A DNA stretch of 56,570 bases from NCBI GenBank assembly GCA_964572035.1, contig CAZNDX010000005.1, forward strand, positions 1-56,570, read 5' to 3'. Positions 17,951 through 20,461 of this stretch are shown here, one piece after another. This stretch comes from an uncultured Methanosarcinales archaeon. GTDB lineage: Archaea > Nanobdellota > Nanobdellia > Woesearchaeales > ARS49. A program made the position numbers and the translations under genes. Each line of letters begins with the position of its first letter. The stretch's first letter is position 1. The notes below the pieces were generated by a model. The model saw nothing but the letters and a program-made list of their open reading frames with translations. It was not told the origin of the DNA and searched no databases.

Positions 17951-18631
17951 GTGAGCGAGAGGGTTTCAACAGGGGTTGATTTTGTAGACAAATTGCTTGG
18001 TGGTGGTTTTGAGATAGACGCTATTACGACTATTTACGGTCCTGCGGGTGCTGGAAAGACTAATCTTGCTCTTCTTGCTGCGGTTGAGACAATCAAACGT
18101 AAAAAGAAGGTTATCTATATCGACACGGAGGGGGGTTTTAGCGTTGAGCGTCTTTCTCAAATCGCGAAGGACCCTAAAGAAGTTTTGGAAAACATTTTGT
18201 TTCTTCGCCCTGTGACTTTTGATGAGCAAAAAGATTTCATTCTGAAGTTAAAAGAATCAATTAATGACAAAGTTGGTTTGATTGTTGTTGATACTCTTAA
18301 CATGCTTTACAGAATGCAGAGAAGTTATGGTGAGGATGACAAAGGCATCCATGATTTGAACGCTCAACTTCTCGCGCTCAATGAGCTCGCGAGAAAGCAC
18401 AAAATTCCTGTTCTTCTGACCTCGCAGGTTTATTCCGCGTTTGAAAACAAAAAAGTGAAGATTGTTGGTGGTGACGTTATGCTTTACACAAGCAAATGCC
18501 TTCTTGAGATTGAGCCTCTTTTGCACGGCAAGAGGCGAATTGTTTTGCACAAGCATCGAAGTGTTGGTTCTGGTAAGGAAGTTGTTTTCAAAATTGTTCA
18601 GGATGGTGTCGAAGAAGTTAAAATTGATTAA
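17951..18631 (+). CDS. radB: DNA repair and recombination protein RadB
   Basis: STGVDFVDKLLGGG, Walker A GPAGAGKT, YIDTEGGFSVERL and the RadB-specific KHR motif. No N-terminal HhH domain. Confidence 0.93.
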   Translation: MSERVSTGVDFVDKLLGGGFEIDAITTIYGPAGAGKTNLALLAAVETIKRKKKVIYIDTEGGFSVERLSQIAKDPKEVLENILFLRPVTFDEQKDFILKLKESINDKVGLIVVDTLNMLYRMQRSYGEDDKGIHDLNAQLLALNELARKHKIPVLLTSQVYSAFENKKVKIVGGDVMLYTSKCLLEIEPLLHGKRRIVLHKHRSVGSGKEVVFKIVQDGVEEVKID

Positions 18632-18655
18632 AAAATAAAGTTAAAAATTAAAAAT

Positions 18656-19252
18656 TTATTCCTCGGTGAATTCGTCCAAGGAGAATGGCGGTTCATCGCC
18701 TGTTATTTTTCCGCGTTTTTTCAAGTATTCGCGCGCGAGGATATAGAACACAAGTCCCAATGACTTCTTTCCTTTGTTGTTGCATGGAACAATCAAGTCA
18801 AGGTCGTTGCTTTGGTTGTTTGTGTCGCATAGAGCGATTACCGGTATTCCAATTTGCGCTGCGTCTTTGACCGCGTTCTTGTCCGGCCAGGCGTCTGTTA
18901 CCAAAATGAGCTTGACTTCAATGTAATCATTTAATTTTGGATTCGTAAGGATTCCTGGCGAGTATCTTCCTGCAAAGAATTTTACTCCTGTGTGTTTTCC
19001 AAACGCCTTTACTGCTTTCCAGCCGTTTTCTCTTCTTGAAACAACCAGTATATCTTCTGGCGCGTATTGTGACAGCATGTTCGCCGCGTTTCCGATTCTC
19101 TCATCTATTTTTTGTAAATTCAAAACAGATAGTCCGTCCGGTCTTGTTTTGTAGATGAACGAGTCCATGTGTTTCGTTCGGAATTTTGTTCCTATGTGTA
19201 TTCCTGATTTTAGGTATACGTCTTGTGGTACTAAAAATGCTTCTTCGCTCAT
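18656..19252 (-). CDS. rps2: 30S ribosomal protein uS2 (archaeal)
   Basis: YLKSGIHIGTK, GRYSPGILTNP, IPVIALCDTNN, DLIVPCNNKGKKS. Confidence 0.97.
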   Translation of the reverse strand: MSEEAFLVPQDVYLKSGIHIGTKFRTKHMDSFIYKTRPDGLSVLNLQKIDERIGNAANMLSQYAPEDILVVSRRENGWKAVKAFGKHTGVKFFAGRYSPGILTNPKLNDYIEVKLILVTDAWPDKNAVKDAAQIGIPVIALCDTNNQSNDLDLIVPCNNKGKKSLGLVFYILAREYLKKRGKITGDEPPFSLDEFTEE

Positions 19253-19329
19253 TTGTTTGTCTCCCGGTGATTTCTATCGCCTCACACCGTGTTTGTTCAA
19301 CCCTTAGCCAGGCTGAACGTTTGGCTTTA
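19253..19329 (-). promoter_or_regulatory. Structured 5' leader of rps2 (candidate H-type pseudoknot plus hairpin)
   Basis: TATA box at 19352-19359 implies a start near 19329. The leader pairs AGCCA/UGGCU and GUUCAGCC/GGUUGAAC in pseudoknot order, then CGGUG/CACCG just before the GGGAG SD. Confidence 0.55.
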
Positions 19330-19352
19330 GAGAATAAACCCTTGAAGGCGCT

Positions 19353-19943
19353 TTATAAAGGTTGTGTTTTTTGTGAGTAAATAGTGGCCCAGTTTCCCGT
19401 CGTTTTTTCTTCTGTGTATTTTATAAGCGATTCAAATCCTGCGTCTTGTAGAAAGCTTTCAATTCCATCTAACGTATGATAGGAGAAGTATCTTCCGTTT
19501 TCAATTTCGTCTCCTGTTCCTATTTTTACTGATGTGTACATTATTCCTTTATTTTTTAGTATTTTTCTAAAACTGGCCAAAACAGAATTTAACTCGTGCT
19601 TTGGTATGTGTAAAAGTGATGCGCACGCCCATATTCCGTCAAAGCTTTCAGGACCAAAAATTATTCGACGCAGGTCCATTTTAATGAATTGAGCGCTGCA
19701 TCTTTTTTTGGCGTATTGTAAAAACTCGTCAACTAAATCAATTCCAACTACTTCATAACCTCTTTGTGAAAAATACTGGGCGTTTGTTCCAGTTCCGCAG
19801 CCGGCATCAAGTATCCTTTTTCCCTGTAAAGTATCAAGAATTCTCAAAAAATCTTCCTGATCACTCTCAACCATATTTTTTTCATATTTTTTTATGAAAT
19901 TTTGATGTTCTTTTTTGTACGCGCGAATTGTTTCTTCTATCAT
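19353..19943 (-). CDS. Class I SAM-dependent methyltransferase
   Basis: ILDAGCGTG motif I, VVGID, FDGIWACASLLH. Confidence 0.9.
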   Translation of the reverse strand: MIEETIRAYKKEHQNFIKKYEKNMVESDQEDFLRILDTLQGKRILDAGCGTGTNAQYFSQRGYEVVGIDLVDEFLQYAKKRCSAQFIKMDLRRIIFGPESFDGIWACASLLHIPKHELNSVLASFRKILKNKGIMYTSVKIGTGDEIENGRYFSYHTLDGIESFLQDAGFESLIKYTEEKTTGNWATIYSQKTQPL

Positions 19944-20461
19944 TTTGAGTGAAACTCCGCCAGTTCATTATAAGTGCTTCCTTCCGGGCCGAGTGTGCTT
20001 TGATAAAGAATTATTTTGTCAACTATGAACGTGTAAGGTTTTACCGGTATTTTCTTCAATAAATCAAGAAATCCTTGTTTTTCATTTATTTCCTTTATTC
20101 GCGCGAGAGTGATGTGCGGATGGAATCTTTCTTCTTTTGGATATAATTTTGAAAGCATTTTTTCTATTTTCTGCTGCAATTTTTCAAACGGCGCGTGAGG
20201 CTCAACTCCCAGCCAAACTACTTTGTCTGTGAACGTTCCTATTCCCTTTAGTTTTGCCTGGAATTGTTCAAATTCAACAAGTGATAGAGCTTGTTTTGTT
20301 TTTTCCAAGTCTTCAGGCATTACTTCGCCCAGGAATTTCAGAGTTAAATGTGGATGTTTTGATATTGTTAATTTTGCCTGTGTTTTGGGTAAGTGTTGCT
20401 GCAATTCTTCTATGTGTTTATTGATTTCATCCGATAGTGGAACCGCGATAAAAAGCCTCAT
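19940..20461 (-). CDS. thpR: RNA 2',3'-cyclic phosphodiesterase (2'-5' RNA ligase, LigT/ThpR)
   Basis: MRLFIAV N-terminus, two 2H motifs (HLTL, HITL), and QSTLGPEGSTY. Confidence 0.92.
   Translation of the reverse strand: MRLFIAVPLSDEINKHIEELQQHLPKTQAKLTISKHPHLTLKFLGEVMPEDLEKTKQALSLVEFEQFQAKLKGIGTFTDKVVWLGVEPHAPFEKLQQKIEKMLSKLYPKEERFHPHITLARIKEINEKQGFLDLLKKIPVKPYTFIVDKIILYQSTLGPEGSTYNELAEFHSK

Follow-up and report, generated by a model that had tools for sequence, protein, structure and literature searches.

The rps2 gene in the window analyzed here (the whole 56,570-nucleotide stretch) is preceded by an uncatalogued structured leader that, on comparative sequence evidence, is confined so far to the Woesearchaeota-type order. 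Covariation among related leaders identifies its conserved core as an H-type pseudoknot, in which the 5' strand AUURCC is predicted to pair with GGYNAU in the loop of a hairpin, P2, that in the window abuts the Shine-Dalgarno (SD) sequence. We hold with moderate confidence that the element is an r-leader of the rps2 mRNA with this pseudoknot and a role in feedback regulation by uS2.

Results

The features of the locus are collected in Table 1, together with the strings that a preceding sequence-only reading had quoted, all of which were found on the minus strand where it had placed them. The leader spans 19329-19253, between the TATA box (19359-19352) and the AUG of rps2, and its length of about 76 nt agrees with the ~75 nt originally estimated. 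The TAA stop of the upstream methyltransferase gene (19355-19353) falls within this TATA box, which has the archaeal consensus, and the rps2 promoter is thus embedded in the end of that coding region. AAAGCC (19328-19323) begins 23 bases past the TATA box and is followed by AAAC and then by hairpin P1; AAACA separates the 3' arm of P1 from the 5' arm of P2, and CAAACAA separates GGAGA from the AUG. A genome search found the leader stretch as a single copy in its own 906-kb genome, which ruled out a reading as a repeat or mobile element.

Table 1. Features of the rps2 locus and its leader in the window
Feature	Position	Strand	Basis or remark
Upstream methyltransferase gene	19943-19353	minus	Pfam Methyltransf_25
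TATA box of rps2 promoter, TTTATAAA	19352..19359	minus	sequence
Putative pseudoknot strand S1a, AAAGCC (family consensus AUURCC)	19323..19328	minus	covariation
AGCCA	19326-19322	minus	letters; followed by aac
Predicted hairpin P1 (S2 of the sequence-only reading)	19295..19318	minus	MFE fold and covariation
P1 arms, GUUCAGCCU and GGGUUGAAC	19318-19310 and 19303-19295	minus	9 bp
P1 loop, GGCUAA	19309-19304	minus	invariant C and U
GUUCAGCC	19318-19311	minus	letters; directly 5' of UGGCU
UGGCU	19310-19306	minus	letters; followed by aag
GGUUGAAC	19302-19295	minus	letters; 3' of UGGCU-aag
Predicted hairpin P2 (pseudoknot stem S2)	19265..19289	minus	covariation; top mutual-information pairs
P2 arms, CGGUG and CACCG	19289-19285 and 19269-19265	minus	sequence
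P2 loop, UGAGGCGAUAGAAAU, 15 nt	19284-19270	minus	sequence
Near-invariant UGA before S1b	19284-19282	minus	pseudoknot L2
Putative pseudoknot strand S1b, GGCGAU, within P2 loop	19276..19281	minus	covariation
A-rich loop 3, AGAAAU (consensus AAAAAU)	19270..19275	minus	joins S1b to P2 3' arm
Shine-Dalgarno GGAGA (GGAG, 19264-19261)	19260..19264	minus	abuts P2 3' arm
rps2 start codon, AUG	19252-19250	minus	sequence
rps2 (uS2, 198 aa)	18656..19252	minus	Pfam PF00318 Ribosomal_S2, E = 2.6e-22

When the 96-nt stretch was folded alone, the gain in stability was modest (z = -1.98, with 7 of 200 shuffles as stable); the lone sequence therefore settles nothing, and relatives were needed. The minimum free energy (MFE) structure holds the CGGUG/CACCG hairpin and a 9-bp version of the stem that the sequence-only reading had called S2. 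A further MFE helix, UCUCU (19333-19329) with GGAGA (19264-19260), was taken as an artefact of folding promoter DNA, since UCUCU is located at the predicted transcription start or before it and the pyrimidine run falls within the promoter spacer in relatives. Pairing of UCUCU with the SD would matter only for read-through transcripts of the upstream gene.

Loci containing rps2 were taken from 40 related genomes, each of a different genus, and 80 loci were obtained from GTDB species representatives with uS2 as the query. These gave 102 non-identical upstream regions, at least 80 of which share one design, which reads from 5' to 3' AUURCC(A/G)A, a variable P1, AAA, P2, the SD, and the AUG, the consensus loops being N-R-C-U-N-N for P1 and UGAGGYNAUAAAAAU for P2. 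A MAFFT alignment of 40 P1-containing leaders (A1) was the source of a covariance model, R1, made of P1 and P2 only, and realignment of 100 loci with R1 (A3) yielded 92 matches, of which one is false and one misaligned. Three genomes flagged as unpublished (G009, G135, and G155) enter as single tally rows only, and no conclusion rests on them; G009 also supplies row L015 in A1 and A3.

Both hairpins covary. Among 91 leaders in A3, an alignment that was fitted to P1 and P2 so that both helices lean toward the model (the untouched MAFFT alignment agrees, more weakly), 78.7% of the cells of P1 are paired, with compensatory changes at 9 of 9 pairs, as are 79.8% of those of P2, with compensatory changes at 7 of 7 model pairs. 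The observed covariation score, 0.571, compares with 0.183 for column shuffles, none of 500 of which reach it, and with at most 0.118 when the partners are slid by 1-3 columns. The alignments thus place the predicted P1 and P2 hairpins far beyond chance. The two stems of the sequence-only reading that correspond to them, its 8-bp S2 (78% paired, each of the 8 pairs showing compensatory changes) and the CGGUG/CACCG hairpin abutting the SD (80% paired and covarying), were in this way borne out by the 91 leaders. Across the Woesearchaeota rps2 upstream regions, covariation upheld P1 and P2 and did not extend to S1, the proposed pairing of AGCCA with UGGCU.

The evidence for the pseudoknot centers on the pair of columns 6 and 91, the R of RCC and the Y of GGY, which is A-U in 50 leaders, G-C in 38, G-U in 1, and unpaired in none; the two neighboring C-G pairs are invariant in A3. 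Pairing at the three outer positions persists in 47-59 of 88 leaders, one of these positions showing U-A, U-G, A-U, and C-G variants. R1 contains no pseudoknot information. In an unbiased mutual-information scan of all column pairs, 6-91 ranks fourth and the rest of the top 13 are pairs of P1 and P2, and RNAalifold, run on a structure-free MAFFT alignment, predicts 6-91 with its two C-G neighbors and nothing else. When the A-U/G-C state of this pair is mapped on a maximum-likelihood tree built from the 91 uS2 proteins, at least 18 changes are required, so the signal is not that of two clades inherited once. A pseudoknot of the H-type is therefore present in the leader, as the sequence-only reading had proposed, but that reading assigned the wrong partners: it is the 5' RCC that pairs with the GGY of the SD-proximal P2 loop.

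In the H-type layout, S1 is formed by the 5' end and the loop, S2 is P2, L1 holds P1, L2 is the UGA, and L3 is the A-run, and the P2 and S1 helices are likely to be present at the same time. Within the window the core GCC of S1a (19325-19323) would pair with the core GGC of S1b (19281-19279), and the family stem comprises only three G-C pairs and one outer A-U pair (AAAGCC with GGCGAU), whereas the closest relatives have six pseudoknot pairs (AUUGCC with GGCAAU). Several unpaired bases are near-invariant, namely the UGA, the A-run, and the C and U of the P1 loop. In A3, entropy falls to zero at columns 32 and 33, which lie in the P1 loop, and the loop 3 columns 95-97 and 99 are A, invariantly or nearly so; by analogy with classical H-type pseudoknots, the A-run may have a minor-groove (triplex) role along S1. 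A k-turn or L7Ae-type reading of the UGA...GA bases was dropped, as the covarying pseudoknot already occupies the neighboring loop bases.

Minimal leaders without P1 (e.g. L027, L050, and L082) keep the remaining motif. Since P1 lies in loop 1 of the real pseudoknot and is missing from several relatives, the stem that had been called S2 is, by this comparison, an optional and dispensable hairpin inserted in that loop. Larger variants were also seen. In L003 (2111-2228, minus strand) and L038 (1372-1489, plus strand), an insertion of ~48 nt in the P2 loop, between UGA and GGC, resembles one or two extra hairpins, and the strands AUUGCC/GGCAAU are intact. A further class (L062, L064, L080, L096, and L103) has the loop G-GGCGAUAAUAA and a conserved extra hairpin, approximately GUUCAAGAAUUCUUGRAC, between P2 and the SD, and is outside the coverage of the present model; leader forms with the GGGCGAUAAUA loop also carry an extra hairpin ahead of the SD. 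In the minimal variants L027, L073, L082, and L092, the true ribosome-binding site (e.g. CAUGAGGUAAUCAAAAUG) is closely like the P2 loop (UGAGGUAAUAAAAAC), and in L073 the covariance model aligned the ribosome-binding site as the P2 loop.

The position of the element relative to the promoter is nearly fixed. In 75 of the 83 leaders with a recognizable TATA-like 8-mer, a spacer of 21-24 nt separates this 8-mer from the start of the pseudoknot strand, the most frequent value being equivalent to 22 nt after TTTATAAA, and the -1/+1 dinucleotide is TA in 57 leaders and CA in 19. Archaeal promoters have the TATA element centered near -26/-27. Given this usual geometry and the fixed spacing, transcription would be expected to start at the pseudoknot strand, and in the window the transcript would begin with that strand itself, at 19328 or 19329; the earlier proposal that the structured element starts within about 3 nt of the predicted transcription start is consistent with this promoter geometry. 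At the other end, 53 of 86 leaders have no more than 20 nt, and mostly 8-13 nt, between the P2 3' arm and the AUG, which places the SD at the foot of P2, as in the window. In the other 33 of 86, the element is placed farther from the AUG, 21-107 nt upstream, and the SD ahead of the start codon is a separate one.

Expression was examined in Logan assembled contigs of public runs, in which uncovered parts carry no meaning; the DNA runs among them were metagenomes of bioreactor, sludge, freshwater, and groundwater. Two metatranscriptomes cover parts of rps2, and one contig (depth about 2, wastewater metatranscriptome X17) spans 19225-19452, across the predicted transcription start. The contig runs from the 3' end of the upstream gene through the TATA box and leader into the beginning of rps2, and it could be read-through from that gene or DNA in the library.

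The element is specific to rps2. In its own genome, R1 has one match at E = 1.4e-14, and the next best is at E = 0.67. In a sample of the order, a match (E up to 0.01) occurs in 65 of 151 genomes, which is a lower bound because R1 is tuned to the P1-containing type and the filters were strict, and 63 of these 65 have exactly one. Of the best genome-wide matches, 29 were fetched, and each is found directly ahead of rps2, on its strand. A phylum-level sample gave a match in 66 of 151 genomes, including 14 of the 15 from the organism's own family; the sole match outside the order and the second matches in three genomes are inside unrelated open reading frames, away from rps2. Two of the marks of an r-leader were thus found, a covarying structure and a position in the 5' UTR of rps2 and not elsewhere. 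The expectation that this would prove to be a structured, conserved leader specific to archaeal rps2 accords with the covariation and with the rps2-only matches.

In a sister order of the same class (L188-L217, centered on G211), inspection by eye found the motif in none of 30 rps2 upstream regions. The TATA box of rps2 lies there ~25 nt ahead of the start codon, and the sequences suggest that rps2 mRNAs of the sister order are leaderless. The uS2 proteins of the sister order have long Lys/Glu-rich N-terminal extensions, and in L193, L197, L198, and L206 an apparent tRNA 3' end is found directly upstream of rps2.

A search of Rfam 15, which the sequence-only reading had recommended, disclosed no relevant family: cmscan of 18600-20000 with E up to 10 returned only a spurious lincRNA match on the other strand. 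Literature searches of full texts, aimed at leaders of archaeal uS2 and at RNA motifs in Woesearchaeota, disclosed nothing pertinent, in keeping with the earlier remark, whose author knew of no described equivalent for archaeal uS2.

Discussion

The reading of the leader as a site of autoregulation draws on its rps2-only association, the conserved unpaired bases, the position of the SD, and the bacterial precedent, and together these suggest that feedback by uS2 is probably its function. No conserved co-directional gene was found after rps2 across the loci of the relatives; an operon partner as an alternative ligand was rejected for this reason, and uS2 is the only candidate ribosomal protein for the regulation. 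In the proposed mechanism, the transcript would start about 22-23 nt past the TATA box with the strand AUURCC, which would pair with GGYNAU in the 15-nt P2 loop to give the H-type pseudoknot. When present in excess over free rRNA, uS2 would bind this fold and stabilize it, and the locked pseudoknot, with the protein bound at the foot of the SD, would deny the 30S subunit access to the ribosome-binding site and so lower uS2 synthesis. We infer from these features that uS2 is the ligand and that it would repress by blocking access to the SD. It should be noted that in the 33 of 86 leaders in which the element is far from the AUG, simple occlusion of the SD could not be the whole mechanism, and their arrangement suggests that something else is involved, such as protection or decay of the 5' end, or an additional hairpin.

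Several other explanations were weighed against regulation by uS2. The pseudoknot could be a constitutive cis element that guards the 5' end of the mRNA from 5'-to-3' decay, or that fixes the level of translation of a highly expressed gene, with no sensing of a protein. The pseudoknot strand is indeed predicted to form the very 5' end of the transcript, the motif is far from the SD in a third of the leaders, and neighboring lineages manage without any leader. However, a generic stabilizer would be expected on other abundant mRNAs, whereas the element is seen once per genome and always at rps2, and its near-invariant unpaired bases suggest a specific ligand surface over mere stability, so that we regard this explanation as unlikely. 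It is also conceivable, if quite unlikely, that the leader is bound by a factor other than uS2, which might be a neighboring small-subunit protein, a 30S assembly factor, or the 30S subunit itself; in the last case, the SD-like GAGG of the P2 loop would serve as a decoy or standby site, with the pseudoknot controlling access to it. The loop GAGGYNAU, often GAGGUGAU or GAGGUAAU, is complementary to the 16S 3' tail, GAUCACCUCC, which the 5' strand AUYRCC for its part resembles, and the P2 loop is similar to the true ribosome-binding sites of the minimal variants. Against such a role, the covarying Y and R keep the intramolecular pair but break the complementarity to 16S rRNA in the GGC half of the family, and the locus has no conserved partner gene.

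Small pseudoknot riboswitches combine a short pseudoknot with an A-rich L3 and near-invariant junction bases, an architecture that the leader resembles, and an H-type pseudoknot with an A-rich loop might sense a small molecule or an ion, as preQ1-I and SAM-II do. The association is only with a ribosomal protein gene, however; metabolic and transport genes are never involved, and no Rfam riboswitch matches, even at E up to 10; a riboswitch is accordingly very improbable. Equally little weight can be given to the possibility that the fold of the sequence-only reading, in which AGCCA (19326-19322) pairs with UGGCU (19310-19306) and P1 is stem 2, operates in this organism. That pairing, 5 bp and specific to the window, competes for the same 5' strand as the family pseudoknot and has five Watson-Crick pairs in the window versus three or four. 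Among the 91 leaders, however, only 45% of its cells are paired and compensatory change is absent: at its central pair, 34 leaders have G-C and 42 of 76 are unpaired, the loop base being still C where the 5' base is A. The closest relatives are able to form only 2-3 of its pairs, and relatives without P1 retain the rest of the motif. The particular AGCCA/UGGCU H-type pairing is, by this comparison, a peculiarity of the one sequence.

Returning to uS2 as the probable ligand, this protein contacts h35-h37 and h26 of 16S rRNA (PMC10931766), and mimicry of these sites was looked for on that account. The organism's own h36, GCC-GUGA-GGU, echoes the RCC...UGA-GGY of the leader, a short resemblance only, and its h26 is a UUCG-capped stem that is unlike the leader; GAGGY occurs five times in the same 16S rRNA. 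Variants of h36 in relatives do not track the R-Y state of the leader. Those noted with L165 (G007), L172 (G017), and L178 (G031) are GCC-GUGA-GGU, GUC-GUGA-GAU, GCU-GUGA-AGU, and GCU-GUGA-GGU, the first three of which (GCC/GGU, GUC/GAU, and GCU/AGU) keep the pairing by compensatory change. A likeness between the P1 loop CAGCUCGG of some relatives and CAGCUCGU of 16S rRNA was set aside, since only the C and U are invariant in that loop. The h36-like, extended-SD-like, and 16S-3'-tail-like resemblances are best treated as leads and not as findings. There is a small chance that the pseudoknot stem imitates part of the mRNA-docking helix of the ribosome, or h36, and that uS2 or a 30S subunit lacking uS2 reads the mimic. 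If this were true, the leader would form an archaeal feedback circuit that senses the completion of the small subunit by means of an SD/anti-SD-like or h36-like decoy, a circuit whose origin would be separate from that of the bacterial S2 leader.

An S2-interacting leader of bacterial rpsB-tsf, now RF00127 (t44) in Rfam, was reportedly described by Aseev in 2008. To our knowledge, archaea are without bS1. In bacteria, uS2 represses rpsB-tsf through a pseudoknotted element in the 5' UTR (PMC10931766, PMC3616713, PMC2704228); the motif (RF00127) consists of a long stem capped by a three-way junction, J2-3 of which pairs with the 3' tail (PMC2704228), and in Escherichia coli the ribosome-binding site is outside the operator and bS1 assists (PMC10931766). 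The leader described here resembles the bacterial one in lying in the 5' UTR of the uS2 gene, in having a pseudoknot with a short GG-containing segment (RF00127; PMC2704228, PMC3616713), in being associated with a protein that binds rRNA late in assembly and is not a primary binder, and in its presumed logic of translational feedback by excess uS2. It differs in having two tandem hairpins, with a 5' tail that pairs with the loop of the second, in the absence of similarity in sequence or covariance model (no RF00127 match at E up to 10), and in belonging to another domain of life.

Few feedback elements of archaeal ribosomal proteins are known; those in the sources consulted are for L1 (Methanococcus MvaL1 operon), S15, eL15, and L4 (PMC7247131, PMC3616713). 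The rps2 leader is, like these, a cis-acting structured RNA upstream of a ribosomal protein gene and is supported by covariation and by an exclusive gene association. The known elements, however, concern other proteins and structures, and neither uS2 nor the DPANN archaea are represented among them (PMC7247131); furthermore, rRNA sites are mimicked by the L1, S15, and eL15 leaders, but the search for such mimicry in the rps2 leader gave nothing convincing.

The fold itself is of a familiar kind. With classical H-type pseudoknots the element shares the order S1a-L1-S2a-L2-S1b-L3-S2b, short stems, and an A-rich L3. Classical representatives (preQ1-I, SAM-II, and viral frameshift pseudoknots) bind metabolites or stall ribosomes. 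The rps2 element, unlike them, is located at the extreme 5' end of a ribosomal protein mRNA and in most leaders accommodates a whole hairpin, P1, in L1.

The comparative support for the rps2 leader is unusually clean, and the element is short (about 40-70 nt) with an apparent start at the first transcribed base. Its natural minimal and expanded versions make it a convenient model for recognition of RNA by a late-assembling protein. Feedback by uS2 through this leader would show that bacteria and archaea independently reached pseudoknotted leaders for the same protein, and the element provides a new RNA family for annotating a very large group of uncultured archaea.
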